Shown here: piece by piece, positions 2,646 through 58,226 of the stretch
Layout of the letters: the number at the start of each line of letters is the position of its first letter
Position numbering within the stretch: position 1 is the stretch's first letter
Assembly (NCBI GenBank): GCA_048563625.1
Contig: JBHNNM010000002.1
Location: 5,483 to 69,482 of the forward strand
Source: Gammaproteobacteria bacterium
GTDB lineage: Bacteria > Pseudomonadota > Gammaproteobacteria > GRL18
Direction of reading: 5' to 3'
Length of the DNA stretch: 64,000 bases
The notes under the pieces: model-generated
Database searches by the model: none
Told to the model about the DNA's origin: nothing
The model's input: only the letters and a program-made list of their open reading frames with translations
Made by a program: the position numbers and the translations under genes

Positions 2646-5092
2646 TGAGCCTCCACTGCTGTTTGGGGTTCTACAGCAGGTTCCTCAGTCACGCCGATAC
2701 TTTGAAGTAAGGCCGAATACTGATCAGGGTCCTTTTCCTTGATTTTCCGCAAGATGAAGCTTGCTGTGGTCTTCATCTCTGGAACATCAATAGGTAAAAC
2801 ACTTCGCTCAAATATGCCTGCTAAATGGGAGAACTCATTATTGATACGATCTGTGAGTGATGCGGCTAATGCGTCATCGCCGAAAAAACGCGCCAACTTA
2901 TCATCTTTCTCTACGGCATTGGGGTATTTGTAGTACAAGAATGCCTCAAGAAACTTCCGGGCATTGTTCCCAAAGTTGTAGTAGCAATCATGATTCTCAT
3001 CACACTCGATCTGGGCGTGGGCGCATTTATAAATTTGATGAAACAAGAAATTGAACTCTGTGACGTAGTCCTTCAGGTATCGAGGCATCAATGTAATGTC
3101 ACTGACTTGATCCGTTCGGGTGATAATGAAGTATTGAGATTTGTTTTTGTTCAAAGCACCGGGAAGCCGCTTCAGGTACTTTAAAAAGTCCAAGTTGTGA
3201 GTCGAAATAAAAAGCTGCTTAAAACGATCACGTTCTTTTAACTCTCCGCCATCTTCATATTTCTCAGGCGTTACAATCTCGGCATTGATAAGGCTGTAGA
3301 CAAAAAAGATATGGTTTGCATCCAAGCTGGAAATGGGATCATCAATCCAGATGATCGGCTGATTGCCTTTAGTCTCTATGTCTTCAAGCTTGGCCATGAA
3401 GTAACAGAAAGCTATCAGGCTGCATTCTCCCTCACTGAGGTGGAATGCTTTTTTGTCGTTTCGAGTTACCTCAAACCGGTATGCAGATGACGCATCCCCG
3501 GGGTTTTCTTCAATGGCTTTGAGTGAGAGAGACTGGTGACCGAAGAAATTATTTAGATAGTCGTTTACCCGGTCAGCACCCTTGCTTTCATCTTTTAGCT
3601 GGGCCTTCAGTTCAGCGATCTTTTCTCGTTTTACATCAACTTTTTCTTTTACGGTGTTCTTAGCCTTCTCCGCTTTGCCCATTGCCTCATTCAGCACATC
3701 AATGGCCGTACACTCGTCTCCATATTTAATGTCGTTTATGAATGTATAGACTTCATGGAGGCGGAGAGCCGCACGAGCTTCCGATTGGTCGGCGCTTAGT
3801 GAAGCTGTAAACTGATTTGATTCGTTCCTGAGTTGCTCAAACGAATTCCTAACCGCATTCAAATCTTCTTCAACCGACTCAGGTGCATCAAATTCGAGAG
3901 GTGTAAAAATGTCGTCTTTTCGTTTTTCGACCTGTTCTTTTATGGAGTCCAGGCTCTCACTGTAAGACGTTGATAGGGCTAATAACTGTTCTGCCAGCGA
4001 ATCCAAGTCAGCTGTAAAATTAGAGTAGAAATCCGAGTTCTTGATTTTCAGTAGATTAGGAACTCGGGACCGCTCATGTTCAATCGATCCAAGCAGATTT
4101 TCCAATGCTTGACGAAGCTCTTCGGACTCCTGATTAAAATGCTTGTCCAGCTTCTCCCATAAATCTTCAGGAAGGTCGCTGCCACAAAATGCGCACTTAT
4201 CTCTTTTTTCTTGATGGTGGCCCCGACCAGTCCTCACCCACGTTGCCAGAGCCGCATCATTTAGCAATTCCTGAATTGGATCAGATGCCTGAATCTTTTT
4301 TTCGATTAGCTCTTCAGCCTTTGAAGCGATCGCAGAGTATTGAAGGTTGAAGGATGATGATTCTCGGATCTCCGGTTTGGGTTCTTCTCTGAGGAGGTCA
4401 TGAAACTTACCCACCTGCTCATCAGCAAGCGGCGCATAAGTATCTTGGGTAACAGTAGAGATGTCTGTTTTTATTTTTGGAACATTGTAGTTGGCATCTC
4501 CAAACGATTTATTGTGCTTAATTCCAGAGCCTGCCTTATTGGCTTTGTCGCGTAACTTTCCCTCCAATTCTGACAATTTATCGCCATGGGCATTTCGGGC
4601 TTCTTTGAAATTTTCTTCAGCCCCGAGGAGCTCTCCCAGCAGTCCAGACTTGTCCTCTTCGTTCCCGAGTTCGGCTTCATGCTTTTCGATTTCTTGCTCA
4701 AGCTTTGTGTTGTCTTCACCCAAGATAGCGAATGAATTGATGGTCTGTTCGTCATCAACAATGAAACGCAGGTTGTCCCGGACAAAGTCCTCATTGAAAA
4801 CCCGAACGACCTGGCCATGATTGCTTAATGAATTTTGCGAGGCAGTGCTGCCGCCATCAAAAGCCAATTGAAACTCAGGTGAACTATATTTGTCTGAGAT
4901 CGAACCGGTTTCAAGAGCTCTGAAAATCCGCGAGAGCGTTGTTTTACCGGAGTAGTTCCGGCCATAAAGGATGTTGATCTTCTTAAATTCAGCGATGTTG
5001 TTGCCACCATCCCGCAGAGATGATGACCATCGGAAGTCCTGAAAAACCGCCATGTTTTTAATCGAGTCAATTTTCTTTATCTCGCCGCTCAT
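2642..5092 (-). CDS. rloC: RloC-like AAA_13 ATPase fused to a PrrC/RloC-type anticodon nuclease domain
   Basis: 816 aa. P-loop YGRNYSGKTT; long coiled-coil insert carrying a CxxC loop (CAFCGSDLPEDLW) like the RloC zinc hook. Walker B IIWIDDPISSLD and H-loop ISTHNLDF. C-terminal region has R-x3-E (ARKFLEAF) and a downstream His (EFSHLAG), as in the PrrC/RloC catalytic triad. Confidence 0.65.
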   Translation of the reverse strand: MSGEIKKIDSIKNMAVFQDFRWSSSLRDGGNNIAEFKKINILYGRNYSGKTTLSRIFRALETGSISDKYSSPEFQLAFDGGSTASQNSLSNHGQVVRVFNEDFVRDNLRFIVDDEQTINSFAILGEDNTKLEQEIEKHEAELGNEEDKSGLLGELLGAEENFKEARNAHGDKLSELEGKLRDKANKAGSGIKHNKSFGDANYNVPKIKTDISTVTQDTYAPLADEQVGKFHDLLREEPKPEIRESSSFNLQYSAIASKAEELIEKKIQASDPIQELLNDAALATWVRTGRGHHQEKRDKCAFCGSDLPEDLWEKLDKHFNQESEELRQALENLLGSIEHERSRVPNLLKIKNSDFYSNFTADLDSLAEQLLALSTSYSESLDSIKEQVEKRKDDIFTPLEFDAPESVEEDLNAVRNSFEQLRNESNQFTASLSADQSEARAALRLHEVYTFINDIKYGDECTAIDVLNEAMGKAEKAKNTVKEKVDVKREKIAELKAQLKDESKGADRVNDYLNNFFGHQSLSLKAIEENPGDASSAYRFEVTRNDKKAFHLSEGECSLIAFCYFMAKLEDIETKGNQPIIWIDDPISSLDANHIFFVYSLINAEIVTPEKYEDGGELKERDRFKQLFISTHNLDFLKYLKRLPGALNKNKSQYFIITRTDQVSDITLMPRYLKDYVTEFNFLFHQIYKCAHAQIECDENHDCYYNFGNNARKFLEAFLYYKYPNAVEKDDKLARFFGDDALAASLTDRINNEFSHLAGIFERSVLPIDVPEMKTTASFILRKIKEKDPDQYSALLQSIGVTEEPAVEPQTAVEAQ

Positions 5093-5204
5093 CCCTATTT
5101 GGCCCCCTGATATTTTTTAAAGTTTTCAGCCCGCTCGGCGATCTCTATGGCATGGAGAGGCTTTCCAGCGTCCTTCAATATCTGTATGGCTGCGTCTTGA
5201 ACGT

Positions 5205-7148
5205 TCATCCTTCGTCCTCCAGCCAGTCCATTGGAATGAGCTTAGTTTTTCCATCCCACCATTTTCCCCTGACGAGATCTTGAAACCAATCCTCTTGAAT
5301 ATCTGCATGCTCAGTAATTACAACCTGAAAATTATGTGTTTCAGCAACGACAAGCTGGAACATTTTAATCACAGACTGTCGATCTGGATTCCCTGTATCT
5401 GTTTCATTCTTCACTGTTTCAGCAGAGGCGTCCGGAGGAAAATATGCTTGAGATGGTTGATCCAAGAATAAGAATTGCGGAACAGGCCTGGATTTCTTAA
5501 CAAACCAATTATGTAAAGAAAGGTGAGTCACCAAGTGCAGGCCGACCCAAGTTTCACCACTACCCATCTTTGGCATGGGAATAGGACCATCTTCGGTATC
5601 GGCAACCACTGTTAGTTTTTTTAGGTCGAGTCGCATCGGAGAGTCGGAATGTTCAATACCGAGGCGTTGAGCCAAAGTTGTGATTTTTGATGAGATTACA
5701 GATAAAGCGGAGCTGATTCTTTCGGTAAGAGCATCGTCATCAAGCTCTTCTTCAAGTTTAAGAATTTGCTGCTTTAGCGTATCTGACTCTTTGATTTCAG
5801 AGGAAAAATCAACTTCGCCTTCGGGCATATGCTCCAGATACAAACTCAAACGACCTTTAACCATCGCGGCTCTTGCATTTTGGTCTCTGAATGCGGAAAG
5901 GCGTTCGTTTGTTTTTTGAAGTGAAATGATTGATGTTTTAACCTCAGCCATTTCAATTCTTATTTGATCACATACTTCCGAGGCAGCTTGGATTAATTTA
6001 TCAAGATGAGGGGTTTCATTTGTTACTGCTTCAAGCTGATGTTTAGTTGATGGAAGGGACGCTTTTATGGCACCGACTGCAGGTATTTCATCCTGTAGAG
6101 CCGATGAACACAACGGGCAGGTATTCCCTTCAACATCTGATGAAAATAATCCGATGGATTCCAGACGAGCGTTTTGCTCTTTAAGCTCAGCTCCGTAACC
6201 ACCCGAAGTTTTTTTGAGATTGATATACGAACTCAACTCTTCTGAAGCAGCTCTGTACTTACTCCGTAAAACGTGCTGTTTATCAAACAGTTTATTCAGT
6301 AAGGTTTCGTCTGGATCACCAGCCTGACTTTCAATTTTTTTCGAGAGAGCCTCTTTCAGAATGCTGCCAATTGCCTGCCAGGTTTCTGGGAGGGCTACGC
6401 CCTGCTGAATTAAACCAACATCCTTGGCTTCATTGATGAGGGCGTAAGCTTGCTCAAAATTGTTTCCACGAAGCCGCTCGTTTTCCGAAATCTTTCCCTC
6501 TAAAACTTTTAGCTTACGTTTTAGCTTCCTAAGCTCCTCCTTTCCCTGAATGTAGTCATCTGTGATGGCTCCAAGAAAAAAGGGCAGATAGTCTTTTATG
6601 CTTTGGGGTATGAAAGGCTCACCTTGTCGATGAAACAGAAATTTCTGATCATCCACCTCGCTCTGTTCTTGGAAGCAGTAGAAGAGCGCTTTGCCGATAT
6701 CTGCATTTCCAGTTTTTCGGGTTTGTCCGGGTTTAGGTTCATGAGAGTAATCAGCAATTCCTAAGGATTGCGAGAGCAGTATGTTAAGAGTCTCTAAGTT
6801 GGCATTCTTAACCAGTGCTTCAGCCTCAGGCAAAACAATGTCTGAACCACGTTCAAAGTAAATATCCTCGCTTGACTCTTTTCCTGCTTCCGGGTTTTTT
6901 CGTGCAATGAATATTTCCCCCGTTGATGTCTGCAATTTGATTGCATACCAAGAAACGTTCTTTCTGATGACACCTGCTGGCACATTGCATTCTTTTCTAC
7001 CAAAACAATAGTCAACGATGTGGATAAGAGCTGATTTACCGGTCTTTGACTGTCCCGTGATAACATTTACACAGTTAGGCTTCAGCTCTATTGAGCGCTT
7101 TTCGTTATTTATGCCATAAACGACAATATTTATTATTTGAAAAATCAT
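5205..7148 (-). CDS. ABC-3C system ABC ATPase (DUF3732-like, coiled-coil insert)
   Basis: Track ORF is 5205..7235. I place the start at ATG 7148 (MIFQIINIVVYGINNEKRSIELKPNCVNVITGQSKTGKSALIHIVDYCFG) because it forms an ATGA overlap with the upstream stop. P-loop, ~350-aa coiled coil, Walker B FLFLDQPSQAYF, H-loop VVITEHAD. Confidence 0.7.
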   Translation of the reverse strand: MIFQIINIVVYGINNEKRSIELKPNCVNVITGQSKTGKSALIHIVDYCFGRKECNVPAGVIRKNVSWYAIKLQTSTGEIFIARKNPEAGKESSEDIYFERGSDIVLPEAEALVKNANLETLNILLSQSLGIADYSHEPKPGQTRKTGNADIGKALFYCFQEQSEVDDQKFLFHRQGEPFIPQSIKDYLPFFLGAITDDYIQGKEELRKLKRKLKVLEGKISENERLRGNNFEQAYALINEAKDVGLIQQGVALPETWQAIGSILKEALSKKIESQAGDPDETLLNKLFDKQHVLRSKYRAASEELSSYINLKKTSGGYGAELKEQNARLESIGLFSSDVEGNTCPLCSSALQDEIPAVGAIKASLPSTKHQLEAVTNETPHLDKLIQAASEVCDQIRIEMAEVKTSIISLQKTNERLSAFRDQNARAAMVKGRLSLYLEHMPEGEVDFSSEIKESDTLKQQILKLEEELDDDALTERISSALSVISSKITTLAQRLGIEHSDSPMRLDLKKLTVVADTEDGPIPMPKMGSGETWVGLHLVTHLSLHNWFVKKSRPVPQFLFLDQPSQAYFPPDASAETVKNETDTGNPDRQSVIKMFQLVVAETHNFQVVITEHADIQEDWFQDLVRGKWWDGKTKLIPMDWLEDEG

Positions 7149-7642
7149 GGTTGAACTCCCAGTAAAGCCATTGCTGTTTTTAGATCTCCAATCGTCGAGA
7201 ACCATTTTCCACACAACTTCGCAGCCCGAACACAATCGCTGACCTCTGCTGTAGAATTTGGTACTGAAAGCTTTGTATCACTGGGGATCACTATCATTCC
7301 GTTTGGGTTAATTGATAACCGGTCGTTTTTCAGGGAAAAAAGCAAAGCATCCTTCGCGTAGGGAGCTATATTTTTAGCCCGATCAGCAAATCCTACCTTG
7401 ATTGCCGCATTCTCCTCTTTGGTAATCCATGCTGAGAAAGCAGTCCTTGAACTGCGGGGTAGCTTCATCCTTGTTTGAGGGTGCAGAATGAGTGGGAGCA
7501 ATATGAACGGTAACGCATATGGCGCTTCGCATTCATCGTCTTTTTTAAACTCCAAGAGAGCCGTACAAACAAGTAATGAGGTGAATGCAGGATTAAACAG
7601 AGCGGCAACCTCAGGTGATCGTTTTTCCCAACTTCTTAACAT
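7145..7642 (-). CDS. ABC-3C middle component (no recognisable catalytic motif)
   Basis: 165-aa ORF wedged between the effector and the ATPase, with 7-nt and 4-nt overlaps. Size and position match the middle component of ABC-three-component systems. Confidence 0.55.
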   Translation of the reverse strand: MLRSWEKRSPEVAALFNPAFTSLLVCTALLEFKKDDECEAPYALPFILLPLILHPQTRMKLPRSSRTAFSAWITKEENAAIKVGFADRAKNIAPYAKDALLFSLKNDRLSINPNGMIVIPSDTKLSVPNSTAEVSDCVRAAKLCGKWFSTIGDLKTAMALLGVQP

Positions 7643-8835
7643 TGGTCATCCTCCGCTTCGTTTGATAACCTATCTTTAAACTGAGGATGCCAGCCAACCT
7701 TAAGTTGGTTGGCCAATATTTGATAAGACCCCCTTGTAATGAATGAATCGGTACAAGATCTCCTGATTGGGATGTCCGCCTTATGCTCAACCCATTCAAA
7801 GACTTTTTTGCCTGAAGAAATCAGCTCATCTTCACACGCAGGGTCAACGATATCATCCTGTATCTGATCAAAAAGTATCGACCACTCTTCTGTTAAGGTG
7901 TCGTCGTATTTTTCCAATTCACTATTGATTAAGAGCTCCTCTCGAACCCAACGGGATCGTTGTTCAGAAGCCATATAGAAGTATTTGGCGGCTCTGGTTA
8001 ACCTTGAGCTGCTAACTGCAATCAAATGCAATTGCTTTGAAAATATCCAGTCCGTGAATGGTTCCAAATCCGGATTTGCGGCTTTGACATCGGGGTGAAT
8101 CGGAAGTGAGTCAGACTTAAACTGTTCACGAAGCAATTCTAAACGCGAATCAAATTCAGCACCGGTGATCGGTTTCGATTGCGAACAGCTTAAGCCATTA
8201 ACAACCTGCGTAATCCACCAGCCTTCAAGGTACTCAAGGAAGTTTGTCAATTGGTTGCGAGGGCAAAAGCCCCAGAGAGCATCTTCCAAGTGTTTCTGTA
8301 GATCCTCGCTTAAAGGGCAGTTGTCGAGTATATAAACAGACTCAAGGAGAGAAACACGGTCTTCAGGCGTTAGCCCCATGAATTTAGCGTAAGCCTCCTT
8401 GTTTGTATCATTTGTCGATGTCTGGGCTGTCTGAAGCAGGATTTTTTCTGCCTCAGTAATATCCCGGTTTTCACTTCTCAAGTGAATCGCAGCAGAATTC
8501 TGGGCCGCCGACTCCGTTGTCATGAGGCAAAGGATTGAGCATTCTTTTGTCACATTCTCTTTGTATAGGTCGACCCATATCCTCATTGTTTTCCATAGGT
8601 CGGTACTCGCATCAGTCAGATTGGCTTTGCGAGAAATATGGTGTTTGACCTGAATAACGTCTGTGGGCGTTCCATCTTTTTCAAAAACCACATCATCAAG
8701 GGTTTCAATGGCAACGGCGATATTAGGATCACTTTTCAGCCTCTTTAACGTTTCCAACGAGGCAAGACGACACTGGTAGATATAGCCCAGCAGCGATGCT
8801 GAAGCTGAATACTGAGTTCTATCTGTAGCTTCCAT
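7636..8835 (-). CDS. ABC-3C effector: N-terminal Cap4/DUF4297-type (restriction-endonuclease-fold) nuclease domain plus C-terminal ABC-3C-type domain
   Basis: 399 aa. SLLGYIYQCRLA ... IETLDDVVFEK ... VIQVKHH matches the D..(D/E)xK-type pattern of DUF4297/Cap4 dsDNA nucleases. First gene of the three-gene unit. Confidence 0.6.
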   Translation of the reverse strand: MEATDRTQYSASASLLGYIYQCRLASLETLKRLKSDPNIAVAIETLDDVVFEKDGTPTDVIQVKHHISRKANLTDASTDLWKTMRIWVDLYKENVTKECSILCLMTTESAAQNSAAIHLRSENRDITEAEKILLQTAQTSTNDTNKEAYAKFMGLTPEDRVSLLESVYILDNCPLSEDLQKHLEDALWGFCPRNQLTNFLEYLEGWWITQVVNGLSCSQSKPITGAEFDSRLELLREQFKSDSLPIHPDVKAANPDLEPFTDWIFSKQLHLIAVSSSRLTRAAKYFYMASEQRSRWVREELLINSELEKYDDTLTEEWSILFDQIQDDIVDPACEDELISSGKKVFEWVEHKADIPIRRSCTDSFITRGSYQILANQLKVGWHPQFKDRLSNEAEDDQC

Positions 8836-8856
8836 GTGCGGTCTCCATTATTGTGT

Positions 8857-10638
8857 TTATTGCTTTTCAAATACTTCGATCAAATTGCCATCAAGGTCAT
8901 GACACCTAAAAAAACGTCGCTTTGACTGCCCCCAGCACTCCAACGGAGTGATTACCTGAATACCGCGCTCCATGATCCAGTGATACCGGTTTTGAATATC
9001 TGTAACTTCAACATAGAGCAGGCTACGGAATCCTTGGGATTGAAATTCCTTGCCATAAGATGCCGGTGCAAGGAGGAGCCCCTGATAAAAAACAACAACA
9101 TCCTTTGACTGTTTCTTGATCGTCAGCCCTAATAGTTCTTTGTAAAACCACACCGATTTTTCAATGGACGCCACAGGTAATTTCGGCCCTAAGTTAAGCC
9201 TATCTGCCTGCACGACTCCTTGTAGTTGATTAGGCGAGGTTTGCTTGGTTGACGGTACGGTTTCTGGTGCCCTTTGCTGGCTGGCAAAGTTGCCCTTGGA
9301 AATTTTGTTGATATAGATTGTTTGTCCTTCAGAGGTGATAAACCGTCTAAATTCAACTTTATACTTTCCGCTGCGGCCTATTTGATCTTGCCCGCAATTG
9401 ACCTTTGCTATTCGACCATCCGGGAGCTTTACTTCGCTCGAGTCGGGGGCAGTTACAACATCATCGATCCAGTTCTTTAGTGCCGTTCTTTTGACGGGCT
9501 CACAACTTGACATACTCTCAGTCTGACGAGTGCTAAGCTTCAGGGCTGTTTTTTCAAGATAGCTGCAATCTTGAATTCCACTCTTCACTGATGATAGCCA
9601 GTCTGAACCATTGATACATCCCAGCAAACCACCGGCCATGGATGCGATTGTGTCAGTATCAGAACCAATTGCGAAGGCTGCCTTTATTACCCCGTTTATC
9701 GGATCTGCGGCATACCGTGAGGCAAGATAAACAGAAGCGACTGCAGCGACTGTACCGGCCCCGCTAATCTGCTTGTTAAAGCACTGGAGCTTTTCGAGTG
9801 CATCATCGTCAAAACTCAATGCGCCTTTGGAAAGCTCTGATTTGCATATATTCAGGTATTTAAGAATCTCATCCTTTGTCGATAACCATAGCTTTTCATA
9901 GCCCTTCAGATGCTTTTCGGCCTGAGACATCCATTCTGGAAAAACTTTATCATGAGATGGTATAGAGGCCCATACCGCTTCATTTGCGATTATTTCTTCG
10001 ATTAATTCACCATAGCCCAGCTTCGTTTCTTTCCGTAAGGCTGACCAGAGTGCAAACCCGTAGACTAATGCGCCTAACAGGGCTCTTGGATGTCCGTGTG
10101 TTGTTATGCCATCCATAAATATGGATGTGGCTACCTCACCGAAGTCCTTTTCGGTCAGGTAAAGAGCGTGAGGCAAAGCACGCATTGCAACGCCATTACC
10201 GCCAGCATCAAAGTATCTTCTTACGTCCTGCGGTTTTCGGTTAGGATTCCATGGCTCAATTCCATCCATCCAGGAGTCGACAGCTCTCTTTGTAGCTCCG
10301 CCTCCACCTCGTTCATAAAGGGACCAGAAAGGTAGCTCTACCTGAGTGTAGAATTCAAACCATTTTTCACCTTTAAGCAGAGATCGGCTCAGACATAGAA
10401 TAAGTTGCGTATCATCGCTGTACTCACCCGTTTCAATAATTTCTTCATGAGGGAAAAAACGACCGCCAGATCGGCGAGTCCACCTCCTAAATTCATGGAG
10501 GCGGCCTTGTGGTTGTTTTGGTGCTTTTGATTTGCCGACTCGTTCGTTAGGCCAACCCAACGCATCGCCACAAGCTGCCCCCAACATAGCACCGACAGCT
10601 TTGCCGGATTTAAACTTTGTTGGCATGTTATCGGCCAT
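8857..10638 (-). CDS. ADP-ribosylglycohydrolase (ARH/DraG family) fused to a C-terminal VOC/glyoxalase-like domain; candidate antitoxin of the upstream DarT-like gene
   Basis: 593 aa. N-terminal GAMLGAACGDALGWPNE and later GSDTDTIASMAGGLLG are ARH signatures. Last ~110 aa (SVWFYKELLGLTI ... FRCHDLDGNLIEVFEK) look like a VOC fold. Start overlaps the DarT-like stop by 11 nt. Confidence 0.7.
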   Translation of the reverse strand: MADNMPTKFKSGKAVGAMLGAACGDALGWPNERVGKSKAPKQPQGRLHEFRRWTRRSGGRFFPHEEIIETGEYSDDTQLILCLSRSLLKGEKWFEFYTQVELPFWSLYERGGGGATKRAVDSWMDGIEPWNPNRKPQDVRRYFDAGGNGVAMRALPHALYLTEKDFGEVATSIFMDGITTHGHPRALLGALVYGFALWSALRKETKLGYGELIEEIIANEAVWASIPSHDKVFPEWMSQAEKHLKGYEKLWLSTKDEILKYLNICKSELSKGALSFDDDALEKLQCFNKQISGAGTVAAVASVYLASRYAADPINGVIKAAFAIGSDTDTIASMAGGLLGCINGSDWLSSVKSGIQDCSYLEKTALKLSTRQTESMSSCEPVKRTALKNWIDDVVTAPDSSEVKLPDGRIAKVNCGQDQIGRSGKYKVEFRRFITSEGQTIYINKISKGNFASQQRAPETVPSTKQTSPNQLQGVVQADRLNLGPKLPVASIEKSVWFYKELLGLTIKKQSKDVVVFYQGLLLAPASYGKEFQSQGFRSLLYVEVTDIQNRYHWIMERGIQVITPLECWGQSKRRFFRCHDLDGNLIEVFEKQ

Positions 10639-11323
10639 GACGACCTCCGTTTCTATACAATGTTTCTGTTGCTCTAACTCCTCGTTGAATCAAGCCGGAA
10701 AGCGTTGTTCGCTTAAAAAAGTCCGGAGGAATGTAAATAGGCTTATCTATTGAAATCCCTTGCAGATTTAACCGGCAGATCTCCCGTTGTGCCTGCTCCT
10801 CCGACTGAACTGCTATGCCAATGATGGAATCCAACGGTATAGGATCTTTCAGCAAAACTTCTGCTTGAATGTCAGTCGGTGCCGATGGCAAGTGCCCCGA
10901 TGGGCGAGAAAAACTAATGCCGGGAGACGTAGTGACATAAAGAGACCTAAATCCTTGAATACCTGTCTGTATGTATCCACCACACGATCTGGCTGCATTG
11001 CAGGGGCAGAAGCATGTGTCTGGGTGCCAGAGATAACTGGGCTTAATCAGCAAAACCACCCAGTCCTTAAATAGGTGGTCATGCTCCCTGACTTTGACGA
11101 AATAATAGGTGTTCGGATATTCAATTGAACAGCAGATCAGATCATCTCTGCCGTCATAGCGATCCGGGTCTGTCGGATTATGAGGCATATCATGACTTTG
11201 AAGAGTCCTTGTTGAACAAAGTCCAAAAGGGTCGTCAAAAATGTGTGCCAAATTCCGAGACTGAGTGAAGTGGCACAACCTTGTGATGCCTCGACTATTA
11301 CATTCCTGCTGAATCTGATTCAT
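10628..11323 (-). CDS. DarT-like (DUF4433-type) ADP-ribosyltransferase toxin candidate
   Basis: 231 aa. ITRLCHFTQSRNLAHIF resembles the DarT IYHITHIDNL start. RYDGRDDLICCSIEYPNTYYF and QAEVLLKDPIPLDSIIGIAV resemble the DarT R... and catalytic-Glu (QAEFLV) segments. ATGA overlap with the upstream helicase stop. Confidence 0.55.
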   Translation of the reverse strand: MNQIQQECNSRGITRLCHFTQSRNLAHIFDDPFGLCSTRTLQSHDMPHNPTDPDRYDGRDDLICCSIEYPNTYYFVKVREHDHLFKDWVVLLIKPSYLWHPDTCFCPCNAARSCGGYIQTGIQGFRSLYVTTSPGISFSRPSGHLPSAPTDIQAEVLLKDPIPLDSIIGIAVQSEEQAQREICRLNLQGISIDKPIYIPPDFFKRTTLSGLIQRGVRATETLYRNGGRHGR

Positions 11324-11601
11324 GGACGGATCTCCTGATAAAGGTTCCCATCCACCGGCAGCAACGAGGTCAATTCATTGCTGTAAAGTAGGATCAGATT
11401 CGTTTTTGCCCGTGTTACCGCAACATAGAGCAAGCGGCCGTCATGAGTCAGGGCATCTTCCTCTCCATGGGATGCCACATGGTCTTTATCCGGTAAATTC
11501 TCAGAATCCAGAAAAGGAAGAATGACCATATCAAACTCAAGCCCTTTGGCCGAGTGATAGGTTCCATGATAGATACCTGGCCCATCATTCCATACCGTCA
11601 A
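11320..11601 (-). CDS. UvrD-like SF1 helicase, C-terminal fragment (same gene as 11730..12722, frame-disrupted)
   Basis: HSAKGLEFDMVILPF and LLYVAVTRAKTNL are helicase motifs V/VI. This frame stays open upstream to about 11800 (…TLAKCSNENQQVELALKAARN…) without a start codon. Confidence 0.75.
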   Translation of the reverse strand: MTVWNDGPGIYHGTYHSAKGLEFDMVILPFLDSENLPDKDHVASHGEEDALTHDGRLLYVAVTRAKTNLILLYSNELTSLLPVDGNLYQEIRP

Positions 11602-11729
11602 GTCACGGTGCAGACGAGTAGCACCTGCACCAAGTTGTGAACTGAATACCTTTTCCTGTTCCCTGTTTTTTACAAGGATGGCAACGCTCTGTGTCGTTGA
11701 GACATTTCTTGCAGCCTTCAGAGCGAGCT

Positions 11730-12722
11730 CTACCTGTTGATTTTCATTGCTGCATTTAGCAAGGGTGGTAGTGCTCCGTCGGCACGAGGCGATGTCGGCT
11801 CAACTAAGTCCGGGATGTCATTGAAAAAAGGCATCCGGGATATGGCCAACCCGAGCTGGGCAATCTGTTTGGTATTTCTATAATTCTCTTTGAATAGCCA
11901 CTGCTGCGGAATGTTTAGACCCGATGAACGCCAGCTCATTCTCTGGCCATAAATCTGCTGAGCTACATCACCGAAAAATGAAAGGGAACCATCCTCTGGT
12001 ATGGCAGCAGCCAAGGAACGAATCATCTCAGGGGAAAAATCCTGCCCTTCATCAATAATGATGTGCTTATACATTCGAGTTGAATCGTCATCCTCGAATT
12101 CTTTCCGCACATGCAAAGCAAGATCATCCCAGTCATACATATTGCCGGTTTGATTGCGTAGTTCGACATACTTCTCGAGGATTTCATACATCACCGGCCG
12201 CAGTTTCCGAGACAGGTTGGTTCCGATACGTCCAACACGATCAATCTTTACATACTCATCGCTCGATGTGATTCCATGACTGAAAATCCACTGGATTTCA
12301 TCCATGAAGAATTCGATGGGCCGCTTGAAGAATTTGGACGGCTCGTATCCTGACTCCACAGCCTTCACCGCTCGTGAAATATATCCCTTTCGCTCATCAG
12401 GGTCGCTGCAGATGCAGTTGAACCGCATTTTACCCCTGACATTCAAATACCCCCGGGCAAAGGTATGATAGGTTTCAATCTGGACATTCCTCAATTCAGC
12501 TGGTTTGAGATACTTCAAATAGGTTACCAGTGCTTTATTGAATGTCAGGAGCAGGGTTTTCCCAGCATGGGGCATTGATGCCTCTGACAAATACGCAGCC
12601 CGGTATAATGCGAGGGTCGTTTTACCGCTGCCAGCAGTTCCCAAAACGGCGGAATGGCCGGTAGCAGGCATGTACAATACCTCTCGCTGCTTTTTGATTG
12701 GCTTTGGTAAATTCCCAGTCAT
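11730..12722 (-). CDS. UvrD-like SF1 helicase, N-terminal fragment
   Basis: Walker A LGTAGSGKTT and motif II IIIDEGQDF. Reading frame is lost near 11765-11800 (CCACCC context). Start lies 2 nt after the hsdR stop. Confidence 0.75.
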   Translation of the reverse strand: MTGNLPKPIKKQREVLYMPATGHSAVLGTAGSGKTTLALYRAAYLSEASMPHAGKTLLLTFNKALVTYLKYLKPAELRNVQIETYHTFARGYLNVRGKMRFNCICSDPDERKGYISRAVKAVESGYEPSKFFKRPIEFFMDEIQWIFSHGITSSDEYVKIDRVGRIGTNLSRKLRPVMYEILEKYVELRNQTGNMYDWDDLALHVRKEFEDDDSTRMYKHIIIDEGQDFSPEMIRSLAAAIPEDGSLSFFGDVAQQIYGQRMSWRSSGLNIPQQWLFKENYRNTKQIAQLGLAISRMPFFNDIPDLVEPTSPRADGALPPLLNAAMKINR

Positions 12723-12724
12723 TT

Positions 12725-15694
12725 CTATCTCACCCCCGTTCCAACTTGATTCGCAGATTGATAAGTGGCTCCGAAGATAGTGTCACCCAGCCATTTCTTG
12801 AAGGAAGGGTCGTCACTGAACTGTTTGAAGAGCTCAGTATGGTCAGCAATCAATTCCACCATGACACGACCGAGGGCTTTATCGTGCTCGATACGGGCAT
12901 TCTGTTTGTCAGAATTTTTCATGGCATTCTGATAAGCTGTATCGGCGGCAACTTTATCGGGAATTTCCTCAGCAATGACTTTTCGAATTTTGTCGGCGTC
13001 TTTCCAGTCGATGTTCCCAAAAAGGTCATTGAAGGTTTTGATGATATTGCTTAGCTGATCTAATTTCGGTTCCGGCTTTCTACCGCCACCAGCGGTCGGC
13101 ACAGCACCCAGCTCCGCATCTTCATCCGCAAGGGTGATATTCATGCTTGCCTGAACTTCAACCCGGTAGCTGTCCATGTCGATCGTTTCAAGAATCCCTT
13201 TTGAGAGATCTTCTTCTTTTGGTGCGGGCAGTTTAGGAATAAGAAAATTCAGGAATATCGAGAGTTTTTCCCAGTCAGCATTGGTGTATGGCAAAATTGA
13301 CGCAAGGAAGCCATATGTCCTGACGAAAGCCTTGGACTTGCCCTTAAAGTCAACCTGTCCATCTTCATCAAGGTCGCTGTTATAGACCGCAACGCAGGCG
13401 TCCAGAATTGGGTCGAGAGTCTCCCGTTCCGCGCCATTCAAATAGAGTTCAACCAATCCATCGATCTGCTCAGGAGAATAAACCTGATAGCCATCCAGAT
13501 CGGACTTCAGGTCGTGAAGCTTGTTGGGATCAGTTTCTTCACTGAGTATGGTCGTGCGGTAATAATCAGAAAATGCCTTCTGGATCACATCAACATCATT
13601 GAAGAAATCCAGAATGAAGGTGTCATGTTTCTTGGGATGAGCCCGATTGAGACGCGACAGAGTCTGGACAGCTTTAATACCGGCAAGCGGCTTATCCACA
13701 TACATTGTGTGCATCAACGGCTCGTCATATCCGGTGAGGAACTTGTCCGCTACAATCAGAATGCGGTATGGTTCCTCGGCAATCCTGTCTTCAATCTTGT
13801 TACTGGGGAAGGCGTTTAGCGTTGCTTCAGTAACCTTTTGACCGCCGTATTCATGCTCACCCGAAAATGCGACGATGGTTTTGTACGGGAGTTTTTTATC
13901 AATCAGATACTCGTTAATGGCATGGAAGTATTCAATGGCTCTCATGATGGCACTGGTGATGACCATCACACGCGCCTGTCCACCGATTTTACGATGTCCC
14001 ATGACCTGTGCGTGGAAATGGTCCATCATGATTTCCGCTTTCTCACGGATCGCATGAGTATTGGACTCCACATATTTCCGTAATTTTTTCTGGGCTTTCT
14101 TGGTGTCGAAAAGCGGATCGCCTTCCACGGTTTTCATCAGCCGATAAAAACTTTCCACCGGTGTGTAGTTCTTCAGCACATCAAGAATAAAGCCTTCCTG
14201 AATGGCCTGCTTCATGGTGTAACTGTGGAATGGATGATGCTTTATCTTGCCGTCCGGCTGTGGATCAGGCTCACCAAAAATTTCCAGTGTTTTGTTTTTC
14301 GGAGTAGCCGTGAACGCAAAATAGCTGGCATTCGTCAGCATTTTACGGCTCTCCATCAACTCGTTGATTTTGTCTTCTGTGCTTTCTTCTTCCTCAGATT
14401 CCGAAATATCCGAAGAGAGAGCCATATTCATTTTCGAGGCAGTGCGGCCGCCCTGGCTGGAGTGTGCTTCATCAATGATGATGGCAAACTTGTTCTGCCT
14501 GTGGTCGTCGCCAATCTCCGCCAGAATGAAAGGGAACTTCTGAACGGTTGTAATGATGATCTGCTTTCCCTCGTTGATGAAGCGGCGCAGGTCACCGGAA
14601 CGCTCCGCATGGCCAACCACGTTGCCAACCTGAGCAAAGGACTTGATGGTGTCCCGGATCTGCTTATCCAAAACACGCCGGTCGGTAACGACAATAATGG
14701 AACCGAAGACCGCTTTTTTCTGCTTTTCCAACCCCACCAGCTGATGAGCCAGCCATGCAATGGAGTTGGACTTACCACTGCCAGCCGAGTGTTGAATCAG
14801 GTAGCGCTTCCCGGCACCTATTTGCTGGGCGTCTGCCAGAAGTTTACGGACCACCGTCAATTGGTGGTAGCGGGGGAATATCTGTTTGTATTTCTTCTTG
14901 CCGGTTTTCTCGTCTTTCTCTTCAACCACCTGCGCGTAGTTTTCCAGAATGTCAGTGAGACGATCCTTCGTCAGAATCTCTTTCCAGAGATAATCGGTGA
15001 CCAGCCCTGCAGGGTTTGGCGGGTTGCCAGCACCATCGTTATAGCCTTTGTTGAAAGGTAGAAAGCACGAATCCTTGCCTTTTAGGTGGGTACACATGCG
15101 TACTTCATGATCATCAACGGCAAAGTGAACAACACAACGGCCGAACTGGAACAGAAGCTCATTGGGGTCGCGGTCATTCTTGTACTGCTGAACAGCATCC
15201 TCGACGGTTTGCTTGGTAAGCTTGTTTTTCAGCTCAAATGTAGCGATGGGCAGGCCGTTAATAAAAACACCCATATCCAGTGCCAACTGAGTCTCGCTGC
15301 CGCTGTAGCGTAACTGACGCGTTACACTGAAAATATTCTGTTCGAACAGCTCCTTGGGTTTCTCATTATTTGCCGTCGGACTGCCGTAAAAGAGCGTTAC
15401 GGAATCCGGGCCGTGTTTCAGACCTTTGCGTAACACATCAACAATGCCCCGTTTGGCAATTTCACCCTGTAGTCGATGAAGGAATTGTGTTCTTTTAGGT
15501 GAATCGATTTCAAGGCTGAGACGCTCCGCAACCTCCGGCTGAGTGCTCTGTATAAACGCCGTCAGCTTGGCGAAGTCAACCGCATGGTCACGATCATAGT
15601 CCTGAGGGTTGCCAGCCTGGTAACCTGCTTCCTCAATTAACGACTTGACGATGGTTGTTTCAAGCCCTGCTTCGCTTGTATCGGTAAATTTCAT
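12725..15694 (-). CDS. hsdR: Type I restriction enzyme R subunit
   Basis: 989 aa. QHSAGSGKSNS Walker A, IIIDEAHSSQ DEAH box, SF2 motor architecture. Overlaps the hsdS stop. Confidence 0.9.
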   Translation of the reverse strand: MKFTDTSEAGLETTIVKSLIEEAGYQAGNPQDYDRDHAVDFAKLTAFIQSTQPEVAERLSLEIDSPKRTQFLHRLQGEIAKRGIVDVLRKGLKHGPDSVTLFYGSPTANNEKPKELFEQNIFSVTRQLRYSGSETQLALDMGVFINGLPIATFELKNKLTKQTVEDAVQQYKNDRDPNELLFQFGRCVVHFAVDDHEVRMCTHLKGKDSCFLPFNKGYNDGAGNPPNPAGLVTDYLWKEILTKDRLTDILENYAQVVEEKDEKTGKKKYKQIFPRYHQLTVVRKLLADAQQIGAGKRYLIQHSAGSGKSNSIAWLAHQLVGLEKQKKAVFGSIIVVTDRRVLDKQIRDTIKSFAQVGNVVGHAERSGDLRRFINEGKQIIITTVQKFPFILAEIGDDHRQNKFAIIIDEAHSSQGGRTASKMNMALSSDISESEEEESTEDKINELMESRKMLTNASYFAFTATPKNKTLEIFGEPDPQPDGKIKHHPFHSYTMKQAIQEGFILDVLKNYTPVESFYRLMKTVEGDPLFDTKKAQKKLRKYVESNTHAIREKAEIMMDHFHAQVMGHRKIGGQARVMVITSAIMRAIEYFHAINEYLIDKKLPYKTIVAFSGEHEYGGQKVTEATLNAFPSNKIEDRIAEEPYRILIVADKFLTGYDEPLMHTMYVDKPLAGIKAVQTLSRLNRAHPKKHDTFILDFFNDVDVIQKAFSDYYRTTILSEETDPNKLHDLKSDLDGYQVYSPEQIDGLVELYLNGAERETLDPILDACVAVYNSDLDEDGQVDFKGKSKAFVRTYGFLASILPYTNADWEKLSIFLNFLIPKLPAPKEEDLSKGILETIDMDSYRVEVQASMNITLADEDAELGAVPTAGGGRKPEPKLDQLSNIIKTFNDLFGNIDWKDADKIRKVIAEEIPDKVAADTAYQNAMKNSDKQNARIEHDKALGRVMVELIADHTELFKQFSDDPSFKKWLGDTIFGATYQSANQVGTGVR

Positions 15695-16998
15695 TCGTCA
15701 ATGCCCTCCGTAATCAGTTCGTCTTCAGACTCTTCATCATCCTGTACTTCCAGATCTGCCTCAACGGGCTCAAAGTCCGGAATTTCTACGGAGCGGACAT
15801 CAACTTTCCCAGTCACCACATCACCAATTATGCGAGAACGTAATTCTTGCAACAGCTTCTCTTCTCTGGCTATATCATTTCTCAAAGCTGTTTCATGGTT
15901 AACCAGCTCTATAATCCGGTTCTGAATATCTATAGGCGGGATTGGAATCTTTTCTTTCATGAGAGTTCTCGCATTTAACGGCCTATTCCGCCCTGCTGCC
16001 CCTCTGGAATGATAATTCAAAACAAGGTGACCAAGTTTTGTTCTGAAAAAAGAAAGAAGATATGCAGAATCTACTATCTCTGATTTTCCTCTAAAAATAG
16101 GGTAACGATGAGATGCAATACAGCCCTCATCATCAGAACCAGCTATGGCTACCGCTCCTTCCCAAGCAAATTGACCGCTAAAAACCAAATCACCCTTTTT
16201 TATCCAAAAGAAAGTAGAGTCGCCTAATTCTGAACCTTTTGTTGGGTTTTTATGAAAAACACCTCTGCCTCTGTTGTACAAGCCAACAGGTGTAAATATT
16301 TCGTCATTTTCTCGATTTACAGGACGTACAATTTGTGTTGCTACAACCCCAAAGCGTAAATGTTTGGTTTCAGGCAGTTTTGCCGCTTCATTTGTTATCG
16401 CATTTCTTCTCTCCGCAAACAGATCAATAAGTTTTTTCTTGTTTTTTATAAACCTATTGATCTTAGCTGTCTGCCAATCCAAATATTTTGCAATTTGATC
16501 CTGCTCAGATCTTGGAGGTAACATGCTAGGAATCTGCCCGAACTGGTCAAAGTAAAGCCTGAGCCGCATATCCATAATGCCACGAGACCAAGCTTTAAAT
16601 TGCTGCAAATATAGTTTTGTCCTAAAAAGGTAATGATAGTAGTCAGGGTTTATATTCTGTACTGCCCGCAGAATGTCGTAAGCAGGACTCGTAACACCTG
16701 AATAATGAGAAACTCCAACTGCTCCCATCCATGCCAAGAGCTTGTTAACAATCAGATCTCCTTTTTTTACAATCCAATAATTGTCAGTTGTGGAAGCTTT
16801 ATTCCCTTTTTGCTCTAAACTATTACGTGGCCTAACTCCAATATGTGTGTATATGGATAACAGCTCTAAATCATGATCTATTCCTGACTTCTCTGTTCTT
16901 AATCGAAAAATGTTTTTGGTTCTAGTGACCTCCCAATGGGAGGGAATATCACCAATCCATGGGACTTTTGAATCTTTATATCGAGGGTAAGTCATCAT
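15691..16998 (-). CDS. hsdS: Type I restriction enzyme S (specificity) subunit
   Basis: 435 aa with two TRD-like halves separated by helical conserved regions. Sandwiched between hsdM and hsdR with 4-nt overlaps. Confidence 0.85.
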   Translation of the reverse strand: MMTYPRYKDSKVPWIGDIPSHWEVTRTKNIFRLRTEKSGIDHDLELLSIYTHIGVRPRNSLEQKGNKASTTDNYWIVKKGDLIVNKLLAWMGAVGVSHYSGVTSPAYDILRAVQNINPDYYHYLFRTKLYLQQFKAWSRGIMDMRLRLYFDQFGQIPSMLPPRSEQDQIAKYLDWQTAKINRFIKNKKKLIDLFAERRNAITNEAAKLPETKHLRFGVVATQIVRPVNRENDEIFTPVGLYNRGRGVFHKNPTKGSELGDSTFFWIKKGDLVFSGQFAWEGAVAIAGSDDEGCIASHRYPIFRGKSEIVDSAYLLSFFRTKLGHLVLNYHSRGAAGRNRPLNARTLMKEKIPIPPIDIQNRIIELVNHETALRNDIAREEKLLQELRSRIIGDVVTGKVDVRSVEIPDFEPVEADLEVQDDEESEDELITEGIDE

Positions 16999-19130
16999 GC
17001 TTGATTCTCCCCAATAATTTTTTCAAGAAGACCGTCGGTTTCCCTCTCTAAAGCAAGAATATCGGCTTTAATTTCTTCTATTGACCTAGTCTGCTCAGGT
17101 TTAAAGAAATGGCGTGTGAAAGAGACTTTATAGCCAATCTGCGTTTTGGAGCCGTCAACCCAGGCATCGGGTGTATAAGGAAGCACCTCCCGTTCGATGA
17201 AGGCGGCAATGCCTCCATCTTCCAGAAGCGGTACCTGCTCCGAATCCCGCAGGTTAGTATCCGGTTCGTATTCAACGACCACCTTTTTGCCGTCTATCGT
17301 TGTGTCGTATAGACCGTAAAGCGGGTTGGGCTCCGCTTTTCCTGCCTTATAAGTTTTCTTGATGACCGGCTCTGCTGATCCATCAATTACCGTCAGATTG
17401 GCTTTCATGAAATTCTTGGATTTGGCCGGAATTTTCACCGCCATGTCTTTGGCCTTGGATTCAATAGCATCTAAGAAGCTGTTGTAATTCAGATGCGGCC
17501 CTTCACCAATTTCACCGGCCACGGCCTCAACAACTGAATAGAGAGCTGTTTCTTTGGCTTCAGTACAAAGTCGCTCGAACCGGCGTAATTTTTGTTCGGT
17601 CAGGTGAACTGATAGGCACAATGGACGCTCGACAATAACCTTTTGATATCCGAATGCCTCTTTTGGAAAAATTTTAGACTGCTCAGTTTGTGCTGGATTA
17701 ACGATGAGCTTGCAAATATCCTGAATGTGATCTTCCGTTAGTTCACAATTTTTTTTGCCCAAGCTCTTTCGAAGTGGCTTAAACCACTCTGTAGCATCAA
17801 CAAGCTGCACCTCTCCCTTGCGTTCACCTGATTTACGGTTTGTCAGAATCCAAATATATGTTGCAATACCGGTGTTGTAGAACATGTTCTCTGGTAGCGC
17901 GATGATCGCTTCAAGCCAGTCGTTTTCAATAATCCAGCGGCGGATATTGCTTTCACCTTGCCCGGCATCACCTGTGAAAAGCGAAGATCCATTGTGAACT
18001 TGGGCAATACGACTGCCAAGCTTGCTCTTTTCCTTCATCTTCATCAGCTTATTAACCAGAAACATCAACTGACCATCACTGGAACGGGTGAGCATTTTGT
18101 ATTCAGGCTCATCCCCATATTCCAGAATGAAGCGAGGGTCTTTCAGATCGCTTTTCCCTCCCATTCGTTCAAGGTCGGTTTTCCAGCTTTTTCCGTAGGG
18201 TGGATTGGAAAGCATGAAATCGAATTGATCAGACACAAAGGCATCGGCTGACAATGTTGAGCCGTATTTGATATTTTCAGCTTCAGCGCCTTCACCTTTG
18301 AGCAAAAGATCGGCTTTGGCGATTGCATAGGTTTCAGGCTGTACCTCTTGGCCGTAAAGATGAATTGAAACTTCCTTGCCTGCCTCTTTTGCAAGTTTTT
18401 GCAATCTTTCTTCAGCAACAGTCAACATCCCGCCGGTTCCGCAAGCTCCGTCATATACCAGATAAGTTCCCGACTCGATTTTGTCAGCAATGGGCAAAAA
18501 GATCAGGTCGGCCATCAGCTTTACCACATCACGAGGCGTAAAGTGCTCTCCGGCTTCTTCGTTGTTTTCTTCGTTAAAGCGGCGGATCAATTCTTCGAAA
18601 ACACTTCCCATACTGTGATTATCCAGCCCGGGAAGTTTTTCATTACCATTAGCATCCAGCACCGGCTTGGGGCTTAGATTGATACTTGGATTCAGATATT
18701 TTTCAATCAGAGCTCCAAGGATGTCAGCATCCACAAGCGTCGGGATCTGGTTGCGGAATTTGAACTTGTCCAGAATCTCCTGAACGTTGGGTGAGAAGCC
18801 ATCGAGATAGGCTTCAAAGTCAGCTTTCAACTGCTGAACTTTGGCTCTGTTTTTCAGGTCTTTGAGGGTAAATGGGGAGCTGTTGAAGAAAGCTTCGCCT
18901 GACGCCTGACACAGGGCTGCGTTCTGATTGGCAATCCCCGCCGAGTCGAGCTGCTTTTTCATATTAAGGACAGCTTCTTTGGTCGGCTCAAGAAGAGCAT
19001 CAAGACGGCGGATAACAGTCATCGGCAGAATCACGTCCCGGTATTTACCACGGACATACACATCTCTCAGGACATCATCTGCAATGTTCCAAATGAAATT
19101 TGTTATTGTATTATGGATACTGTAATTCAT
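16995..19130 (-). CDS. hsdM: Type I restriction enzyme M (N6-adenine methyltransferase) subunit
   Basis: Motif I VYDGACGTGGML and motif IV NPPYGKSW. Track ORF starts at 19187, but MNYSIHNTITNFIWN (ATG 19130) avoids overlap with the upstream HTH gene. Confidence 0.9.
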   Translation of the reverse strand: MNYSIHNTITNFIWNIADDVLRDVYVRGKYRDVILPMTVIRRLDALLEPTKEAVLNMKKQLDSAGIANQNAALCQASGEAFFNSSPFTLKDLKNRAKVQQLKADFEAYLDGFSPNVQEILDKFKFRNQIPTLVDADILGALIEKYLNPSINLSPKPVLDANGNEKLPGLDNHSMGSVFEELIRRFNEENNEEAGEHFTPRDVVKLMADLIFLPIADKIESGTYLVYDGACGTGGMLTVAEERLQKLAKEAGKEVSIHLYGQEVQPETYAIAKADLLLKGEGAEAENIKYGSTLSADAFVSDQFDFMLSNPPYGKSWKTDLERMGGKSDLKDPRFILEYGDEPEYKMLTRSSDGQLMFLVNKLMKMKEKSKLGSRIAQVHNGSSLFTGDAGQGESNIRRWIIENDWLEAIIALPENMFYNTGIATYIWILTNRKSGERKGEVQLVDATEWFKPLRKSLGKKNCELTEDHIQDICKLIVNPAQTEQSKIFPKEAFGYQKVIVERPLCLSVHLTEQKLRRFERLCTEAKETALYSVVEAVAGEIGEGPHLNYNSFLDAIESKAKDMAVKIPAKSKNFMKANLTVIDGSAEPVIKKTYKAGKAEPNPLYGLYDTTIDGKKVVVEYEPDTNLRDSEQVPLLEDGGIAAFIEREVLPYTPDAWVDGSKTQIGYKVSFTRHFFKPEQTRSIEEIKADILALERETDGLLEKIIGENQA

Positions 19131-19140
19131 GTAATTTCCC

Positions 19141-19353
19141 TTACTCTTTGTTGTCTTCCTCTTTGAAATCACTTGCGTTTCCGTCACGCACCCAAGTATC
19201 CACTTCGTCTTTTTTGAACTTCCAAAGACGGCCGATTTTGTGGGCGGGCATGTCTTTTTCGCTTATCCACTTATAGACGGTATCTCGCTTGATCCCGAGA
19301 TAGTCTCCAATTTCATCTACGGACAACCATCTGTCTTCCATTTTCGACTCCAT
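19141..19353 (-). CDS. Small excisionase/AlpA-type (HTH_17/MerR-like) DNA-binding protein heading the R-M operon
   Basis: LSVDEIGDYLGIKRDTVYKWISEKDMPAHKIGRLWKFKKDEVDTWV is a typical HTH_17 sequence. Start is uncertain (19341-19419). Confidence 0.7.
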   Translation of the reverse strand: MESKMEDRWLSVDEIGDYLGIKRDTVYKWISEKDMPAHKIGRLWKFKKDEVDTWVRDGNASDFKEEDNKE

Positions 19354-19571
19354 CATTCTTTGAGGGCCGTCCAAACGGCTCGTCAAGTTGTTTAACCGGA
19401 CGGCATCCAATAGGGGCACAACCCGGCTACATTAGGTTAAACAGGGTTTAAGATATTTAGATGAAATGAAAAAATCAAGCTTTCTTTCCGGATTTAACCG
19501 AGTTTAGCCGAATTTCTTTCCATCCCAGTACCCATCGGGAAGGCGCAAACTGCCTCGGAGAATATGGTCGA

Positions 19572-19617: not shown

Positions 19618-19643
19618 GGCTGTTTTTCACAGATGGGATTGCG

Positions 19644-58081: not shown

Positions 58082-58100
58082 ACCGGCTGCCTTTGTAATG

Positions 58101-58210: not shown

Positions 58211-58226
58211 AATCGGCCGGGCATAT

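Follow-up and report, generated by a model that had tools for sequence, protein, structure and literature searches.

Positions 8857 to 12722 of a 64,000-nucleotide stretch of contig JBHNNM010000002.1 (assembly GCA_048563625.1, Gammaproteobacteria bacterium), hereafter the window, carry on the minus strand three overlapping genes for a UvrD-like helicase, an ADP-ribosyltransferase of the DarT family and an ADP-ribosylglycohydrolase (ARH) fused to a C-terminal domain of VOC/glyoxalase fold. We consider it likely that this locus belongs to the recently described DarHTG system, with the helicase as DarH, a DarT1-related DarT and an ARH-fold DarG3 bearing a β+VOC tail, and that it acts by the mechanism proposed below. 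Its helicase gene is frameshifted, and the locus is best described as a new, probably degenerate, member of that system. An earlier note, made from the sequence alone, had taken the toxin and ARH genes for an undescribed DarT-type variant; this claim to novelty has fallen, as DarHTG with its ARH-like DarG3 is already in print (PMC13069673). What would remain new is the β+VOC or RhuM tail of DarG3 and the predicted reversal of DNA-base ADP-ribosylation by an ARH domain.

DarHTG, identical with Liu-DS3, combines the helicase DarH with DarT and DarG3 and was reported in Nucleic Acids Research in April 2026 (PMC13069673), preceded in December 2025 by a preprint (10.64898/2025.12.08.692795) in which the helicase is named TgaH. 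DarH is described there as UvrD-like and without a 2B domain, and DarG3 as a new DarG subfamily resembling eukaryotic and archaeal ADP-ribosylglycohydrolases (PMC13069673). The system shields E. coli from phages T4, T5, T7 and SSL_2009a, defence is lost when the active site of DarT or ATP-binding residues of the helicase are mutated, and cloning of a DarG3 mutant was not achieved (PMC13069673). DarHTG is commonest in Thermodesulfobacteriota and Bacteroidota (PMC13069673), the two groups that also dominate the lists of DarT and DarG3 homologues obtained here.

The N-terminal frame of the window helicase gene encodes 330 residues of a superfamily 1 (SF1) helicase, among them the Walker motifs A (GTAGSGKTT) and B (DEGQD), and its start codon lies 2 nucleotides (nt) past the hsdR stop codon. 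The C-terminal part, comprising the 2A domain with helicase motifs V and VI, is read in frame -1 with respect to its N-terminal counterpart; a 93-residue open reading frame (ORF) within it (11320..11601, minus strand) matches Pfam UvrD_C and UvrD_C_2, and the stop codon overlaps the DarT start codon by 4 nt (ATGA). In an alignment of the window gene with six orthologues a CCC run of the orthologues is reduced to CC in the window (CTA-CCACC as opposed to CTACCCACC), so that one C is missing at about position 11768, and this deletion is the sole internal indel over 1.4 kb. Insertion of one base restores a DarH of 467 residues that is collinear with the intact orthologues of 466-467 residues, and the window helicase gene (11320..12722) is therefore frameshifted. 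A programmed frameshift or a naturally split helicase can be ruled out, since all orthologues are single ORFs and none has an indel at this site. In an intact 467-residue orthologue the UvrD_C profile is matched only at positions 291-349 of 350; as only the end of the profile is covered, this fits a missing 2B region.

The gene order is conserved far beyond the window. Eighteen distinct related loci with upstream DNA were compared, drawn from genome contigs encoding homologues, from tblastn searches of plasmids and from viral contigs; a scan of a genome collection with DarT gave five close loci. In every one of the 18, DarT is flanked directly by a UvrD-like helicase gene (449-498 codons) on the upstream side, in most cases with an overlap of 4 nt, and by an ARH gene on the downstream side. 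The helicase is full length in 15 loci, truncated next to an IS110-family transposase gene in two (L003 and L004) and cut by the contig end in one (L008). The triads originate from Dehalogenimonas (Chloroflexota), Bacteroidota, Victivallales, Thermodesulfobacteriota, Desulfobacterales, Opitutaceae, Ralstonia, Shinella, Streptomyces, Rhodococcus and viral contigs of IMG/VR, at least seven phyla in all, and the arrangement is still present at a DarT identity of 34%. Close homologues of DarT number more than 600, at 60-92% identity, and matches to the ARH-VOC protein more than 2,500, many of them with contigs in common. Two IMG/VR contigs classed as viral (L025 and L026) contain helicase-DarT-ARH triads at 35-43% identity. 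A differing architecture is present on the Nostoc sp. C052 plasmid NZ_CP040275.1 (L023, 1..5526), where a large AAA-domain protein is encoded together with a 531-residue DarT-family protein, which has Lys and Glu at the positions of R55 and D57, and a 505-residue ARH-family protein, next to the BREX gene pglZ.

The two genes recognized in the earlier note are borne out as minus-strand ORFs of 231 and 593 codons with an 11-nt overlap, and the motifs it had listed (CHFTQSRNL, RYDG..SIEYPNTYYF, QAEVLL, GDALGWPNE and GSDTDT) are all present in the translations. Its assignment of the 231-residue protein to the DarT family holds as well: Pfam DarT (PF14487) is matched with 76.2 bits (cut-off 22.5), residues 17-203 covering profile positions 1-200 of 201. 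The only solved structure retrieved by sequence is DarT1 of E. coli C7 (PDB code 8baq, E=2e-23). Comparison of the AlphaFold2 (AF2) model (predicted local distance difference test score, pLDDT, 83) with known structures by Foldseek likewise leads to 8baq (E=1e-13, TM scores 0.71/0.78, 34% identity), while the structures of DarT2 superpose less well (TM about 0.54, 13-16% identity, E=4e-7 to 4e-5). The NCBIfam equivalog toxin_DarT, which represents DarT2, gives 20 bits, where the cut-off is 150.

The catalytic glutamate of the family is taken as E152 in DarT1 and E160 in DarT2. The glutamate of QAEVLL, a candidate for this role in the earlier note, is E155 and aligns with the residue mutated in crystallised E. 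coli C7 DarT1 (E152A). In DarT1, R52, M71, N104 and E152 are essential, and D54 is part of a proposed proton relay; N104 coordinates the guanine, and DarT2 carries His119 at that position (PMC11543638). R52, D54, N104 and E152 correspond to R55, D57, N109 and E155 of the window protein and are kept in all 12 DarHTG-type DarTs compared, and the Asn at position 109 recurs without exception in the DarHTG-type and DarT1 sequences compared. In an alignment of 28 homologues R55, D57, Y74, N109 and E155 are invariant. The nearest relatives outside DarHTG are DarT1 genes on Klebsiella and Vibrio plasmids (L017 and L018, the only loci with a match to PF22397), which adjoin genes of NADAR antitoxins (PF22397), and in a neighbour-joining tree the DarHTG toxins form a clade apart from that of DarT1. 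Sequence, structure and tree thus all place the toxin nearest to the guanine-specific DarT1 and not to the thymine-specific DarT2. Therefore the appropriate comparison is a NADAR domain replaced by an ARH domain together with an added helicase. The earlier note had seen an ARH eraser in the place of a macrodomain; it was right that a macrodomain is missing, but the macrodomain system it chose for comparison (DarTG2) is not the nearest.

The fusion of ARH and VOC domains in the 593-residue partner, also anticipated there, is evident from the matches to ADP_ribosyl_GH (PF03747, 141.5 bits, residues 16-348) and Glyoxalase (PF00903), and neither NADAR (PF22397) nor a macrodomain is matched among the Pfam families. 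The AF2 model (pLDDT 84.5) consists of a helical ARH domain, a helix with a small β domain, a disordered linker and the VOC domain (residues 486-591). Structural neighbours of the ARH domain in Foldseek are ARH3 (TM 0.72, normalised to the target), the Tri1 immunity protein (6dre), MJ1187 and a Thermus ARH. The family motifs are intact (GD25...E32, S74-D75-D76-T77, T180-H181-G182-H183 and D327-T328-D329-T330). With this complete set of di-metal and catalytic motifs the domain is very probably an active enzyme, because the acidic and the Thr/His motifs are invariant in 38 homologues. As judged from NCBIfam profile scores, DarG3 is an equivalog neither of DraG (45 against a cut-off of 337) nor of Tri1 (27 against 490).

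C-terminal to the ARH domain DarG3 harbors two further modules. The middle one, a single helix with a four-stranded β domain, has no Pfam match and was assigned to no family; it is kept in the orthologues of DarG3, including those with a RhuM domain. A disordered linker (residues 455-483 of the AF2 model) leads to the VOC domain, whose residues 487-591 exceed the thresholds of Glyoxalase (29.2 bits, cut-off 20.6) and Glyoxalase_2 (PF12681, 31.2 bits, cut-off 30.1). The β-α-β-β-β arrangement of the fold agrees with the AF2 secondary structure, and Foldseek returns a viral VOC protein. A scan of all 1.84 billion cluster representatives yielded only 121 clusters with the β+VOC module, most of them proteins of about 560-680 residues that match at roughly residues 380-600; the shorter matches may be gene fragments. 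From this distribution the module appears specific to the DarG3 family. Distant relatives in Ralstonia, Rhodococcus and Shinella retain the VOC domain. A RhuM domain (PF13310) takes its place in L011, L012 and four of the 120 nearest homologues, and no VOC domain was detected in the Streptomyces locus or in two viral-contig loci (L025 and L026, by BLAST).

The VOC domain might be a second enzyme, for instance a metalloenzyme of glyoxalase or FosB type that would detoxify a by-product formed when ADP-ribose is released, as its scores above both glyoxalase thresholds, its similarity to the metallothiol transferase FosB and the nearly invariant final-strand glutamate E588 would suggest. The metal ligands of FosB (H7, H66 and E115), however, align with G484, Y542 and E588; with two of three ligand positions occupied by Gly and Tyr instead of His, the canonical metal site is absent, and a canonical metalloenzyme is ruled out. 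The best match in the PDB by sequence, Atu1872, is uncharacterised, and the exchange for RhuM in some orthologues and the lack of a detectable VOC domain in the Streptomyces and two viral-contig loci fit an accessory module. A second enzymatic activity is hence improbable. Because the metal ligands are lost and RhuM takes its place in relatives, the tail would more readily be explained by a non-catalytic function, and its swappable nature accords better with binding, regulation or oligomerisation than with a second chemistry that is obligatory.

For the DarHTG system we propose the following course of events. DarT would use NAD+ for the ADP-ribosylation of a base within single-stranded DNA (ssDNA), most likely at guanine N2, because the guanine-coordinating N104 of DarT1 is kept as N109 along with R55, D57 and E155; guanine specificity is a reasonable prediction from these residues. 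In uninfected cells the ARH domain of DarG3 would remove the adduct and act as an enzymatic, type IV-like antitoxin, a step for which the literature offers as its one piece of backing the failed cloning of the DarG3 mutant (PMC13069673). The ATPase of DarH is needed for defence (PMC13069673), and DarH probably provides the link between DarT and phage DNA, through production of ssDNA or detection of phage replication intermediates. The β+VOC tail would serve as a non-catalytic module for binding, dimerisation or regulation. More tentatively, and with less confidence than we place in DarHTG membership, DarG3 may be the first ARH eraser of nucleobase ADP-ribosylation (guanine N2 in ssDNA), with a β+VOC or RhuM tail that gates the antitoxin activity. 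Such gating could operate through binding of DarT or DarH or through sensing of a phage cue, and the tail would then not be a vestigial enzyme.

Several points weigh against this assignment and mechanism. Membership in DarHTG rests on architecture, fold and phyletic distribution, the Liu-DS3 proteins having been compared through their published description. Neither megablast nor blastn found a match of the 3.9-kb cassette in 5,426 complete E. coli genomes. The frameshift in DarH could reflect either a real pseudogene or an error of sequencing or assembly. All 12 DarHTG-type DarTs compared have Tyr at position 74, where DarT1 sequences have Met (M71), a residue proposed to stabilise the oxocarbenium ion and required for DarT1 activity (PMC11543638); with Tyr74 in its place, chemistry or specificity of the DarHTG toxins may differ. 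For this clade the modified base, and DNA rather than protein as the target, are predictions from conserved residues, and the function given to the VOC domain is conjectural. To our knowledge, characterised ARH enzymes act on ADP-ribose linked to Arg or Ser of proteins or on O-acetyl-ADP-ribose, not on nucleobases.

This last point speaks for a different scheme, in which the DarT-like enzyme modifies protein (or RNA), the ARH domain reverses ADP-ribosylation of Arg or Ser, and the helicase is a regulated target or an unrelated effector. All characterised members of the ARH family use protein-linked or small-molecule ADP-ribose, the closest matches of DarG3 in sequence and fold include DraG, ARH1, ARH3 and Tri1, and the texts of the DarHTG papers report no biochemistry. 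Yet the toxin keeps all of the residues R52, D54, N104 and E152 of DarT1 that belong to DNA ADP-ribosylation, the base-coordinating Asn included, its nearest relatives are the DNA-modifying DarT1 enzymes, and an SF1 DNA helicase as obligatory partner likewise speaks for DNA. By chemical reasoning, moreover, guanine N2 is the exocyclic amine of a guanidine-like group, so that its ADP-ribose linkage would be akin to the N-glycosidic bond of ADP-ribosylarginine cleaved by ARH1 and DraG. We regard a protein target as unlikely.

The boundaries of the locus also bear on its composition. Two related loci, L024 and L007, share with the hsdR-DarHTG-Lamassu block of the window only a stretch of 3,867 bp that extends from the helicase ATG (12722) to the DarG3 stop codon (8857). 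Homology that ends exactly at the gene borders in two unrelated contexts marks the three genes, therefore, as a mobile cassette of 3.87 kb. The toxin-first order and the overlap of the toxin and antitoxin genes stand as the earlier note gave them and fit a toxin-antitoxin (TA) pair; its restriction of the unit to two genes does not, since it covers positions no further than the start codon of DarT and leaves out the helicase found upstream in all 18 loci. That DarT and the ARH-VOC protein form a self-contained two-gene TA module of a previously undescribed type, with the helicase an unrelated neighbour, draws on this same order and 11-nt overlap and on the persistence of the intact pair where the helicase is broken (window) or truncated (L003 and L004), but is very unlikely and largely refuted by gene-neighbourhood conservation, given a helicase next to DarT in all 18 loci, even at 34% DarT identity and in no fewer than seven phyla, its 4-nt overlap with DarT, cassette homology that begins exactly at its ATG, the loss of defence in its ATP-binding mutants and an architecture already published (PMC13069673).

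If the deletion is real, the window copy of DarHTG is probably dead for defence, with DarT and DarG3 persisting as an addictive pair. In two loci of a Bacteroidota lineage (L003, 5129..6004; L004, 2..931) DarH is truncated at the 5' end, starts at about residue 174 and adjoins the IS110-family transposase gene. Both loci retain DarT and DarG3 in intact form, which amounts to an independent loss of the helicase with the same pattern as in the window.

Comparison with known systems places the locus closest to DarHTG, with which it shares the order helicase-DarT-ARH, a UvrD-like helicase probably short of most of 2B, the ARH-fold antitoxin and the phyletic bias. It differs in the frameshifted DarH of the window copy. 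As to the tail of DarG3, the main text of both versions of the DarHTG paper mentions neither VOC, glyoxalase nor a C-terminal domain, and no RhuM alternative. DarTG1 (DarT1 and NADAR of E. coli C7) has a toxin of 34% identity with the same Arg, Asp, guanine-binding Asn and catalytic Glu, and likewise an enzymatic antitoxin encoded downstream, whereas the window locus has ARH+β+VOC instead of NADAR, an additional helicase gene, Tyr74 instead of Met and a toxin of a separate clade. DarTG2 (DarT2 and the macrodomain protein DarG, from Thermus, M. tuberculosis and enteropathogenic E. coli) shares the ADP-ribosyltransferase fold family and the toxin-first operon, and its loci often reside within Type I restriction-modification (R-M) operons, as does the window locus; in contrast, the base-contacting residue of the window toxin is Asn and not His, and a macrodomain is missing. 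In DraT/DraG and Tre1/Tri1, too, an ADP-ribosyltransferase has as its partner a hydrolase of ARH fold that undoes the modification, but the target is arginine in proteins and the transferases are not of the DarT family. Two further candidates were discarded: the terms DarG3 and DarT3 in a Vibrio cholerae preprint are artefacts of superscript reference numbers, and DS-32 of DefensePredictor is a system of NADAR and PRTase and not a relative.

Table 1. Features of the DarHTG locus and its neighbours; positions refer to the window unless a related locus is named.
Feature	Position	Strand	Description	Basis
DarH, N-terminal frame	11730..12722	-	330 residues; UvrD-like SF1 helicase	Pfam UvrD-helicase, AAA_19
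DarH, C-terminal part	11320..11769	-	2A domain, helicase motifs V and VI; -1 frame relative to N-terminal part	Three-frame translation
Site of 1-nt deletion	11768..11770	-	CCC run of orthologues is CC in window	Alignment of 7 orthologous helicase genes
DarT	10628..11323	-	Toxin, 231 residues, DarT1-related clade	Pfam, PDB, AF2/Foldseek, homologue alignment
DarG3, whole ORF	8857..10638	-	593 residues; 11-nt overlap with DarT gene	ORF and translation
DarG3, ARH domain	9529..10617	-	Residues 8-370	Pfam, AF2, Foldseek, motif conservation
DarG3, middle module	9295..9489	-	Residues 384-448; one helix and four-stranded β domain	AF2 secondary structure, pLDDT
DarG3, VOC/glyoxalase-fold domain	8860..9189	-	Residues 484-593	Pfam, PDB sequence match, Foldseek
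RhuM-type DarG3	L011 6686..9124; L012 6716..9130		804-812 residues; PF13310 366 bits; ARH and middle β kept	
hsdM	16995..19187	-	Type I R-M; directly upstream of DarH with hsdS and hsdR	ORF and translation
hsdS	15691..16998	-	Type I R-M	ORF and translation
hsdR	12725..15694	-	Type I R-M	ORF and translation
Lamassu-type ABC-3C	5205..8835	-	Three genes, as below	Pfam, PADLOC
LmuA	7636..8835	-	Cap4 nuclease and CTD7	Pfam, PADLOC
LmuC/MC3	7145..7642	-		Pfam, PADLOC
LmuB/DUF3732	5205..7235	-		Pfam, PADLOC

The cassette is part of a low-GC island (about 45% as compared with 55% for the rest of the window) in which all genes lie on one strand in the order HTH_17, hsdM, hsdS, hsdR, DarH, DarT, DarG3, LmuA, LmuC, LmuB, an AAA_13 ATPase of the PADLOC candidate system PDC-S06 and an SbcD-like nuclease. 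The Type I R-M setting invoked in the earlier note is thus present directly upstream on the same strand, and the orthologous block of L005 carries Pfam HSDR_N, ResIII and Methylase_S. A complete Lamassu-type ABC-3C system follows DarG3 after a gap of 21 nt, in an order kept in L005 and L006. Over its 10.7 kb the block from hsdR through DarHTG to Lamassu (window 5131..15823) shares 92.8% identity with a Victivallales metagenome-assembled genome (L006, 1499..12193) and 88% with a second one (L005). Downstream, the region 1407..5092 (minus strand) encodes the 816-residue AAA_13 ATPase, which matches PDC-S06 with 1104 bits and PrrC weakly, followed at 1407..2645 (minus strand) by the SbcD-like phosphoesterase. 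A scan of 4900..19900 for promoters and terminators gave nothing above the shuffled background.

From about 19900 to 64000 the window has a GC content of about 55% and encodes structural and replication proteins like those of a myovirus-type prophage, among them a tail sheath, a tape-measure or minor tail protein, a P2-I-like baseplate protein, a DUF4815 protein, a D12 adenine methyltransferase and a DnaG-like primase. The defence island adjoins this phage-like region next to the excisionase-like HTH_17 gene (19141..19419), and no tRNA or tmRNA that could mark an integration site was detected in the window. A second low-GC cassette (57937..60887), with genes for a short RloB-like protein (58756..59157) and an AAA_21 ATPase (59157..60485), lies within the phage-like region. 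In L007, a Thermodesulfobacteriota chromosome, DNA with 87-88% identity to this cassette is situated about 700 bp downstream from DarG3; the two cassettes therefore travel together elsewhere.

The locus illustrates how a plausible call of a new TA system, in which the essential third gene had been missed, was overtaken by very recent literature. The DarHTG family to which it likely belongs is large and crosses phyla as a 3.87-kb cassette. Should the prediction for DarG3 prove true, its ARH antitoxin would extend the chemistry of ARH enzymes to DNA bases. The natural copies with a broken helicase, in the window and in L003 and L004, suggest that DarT and DarG3 can outlast the defence function as an addiction module.

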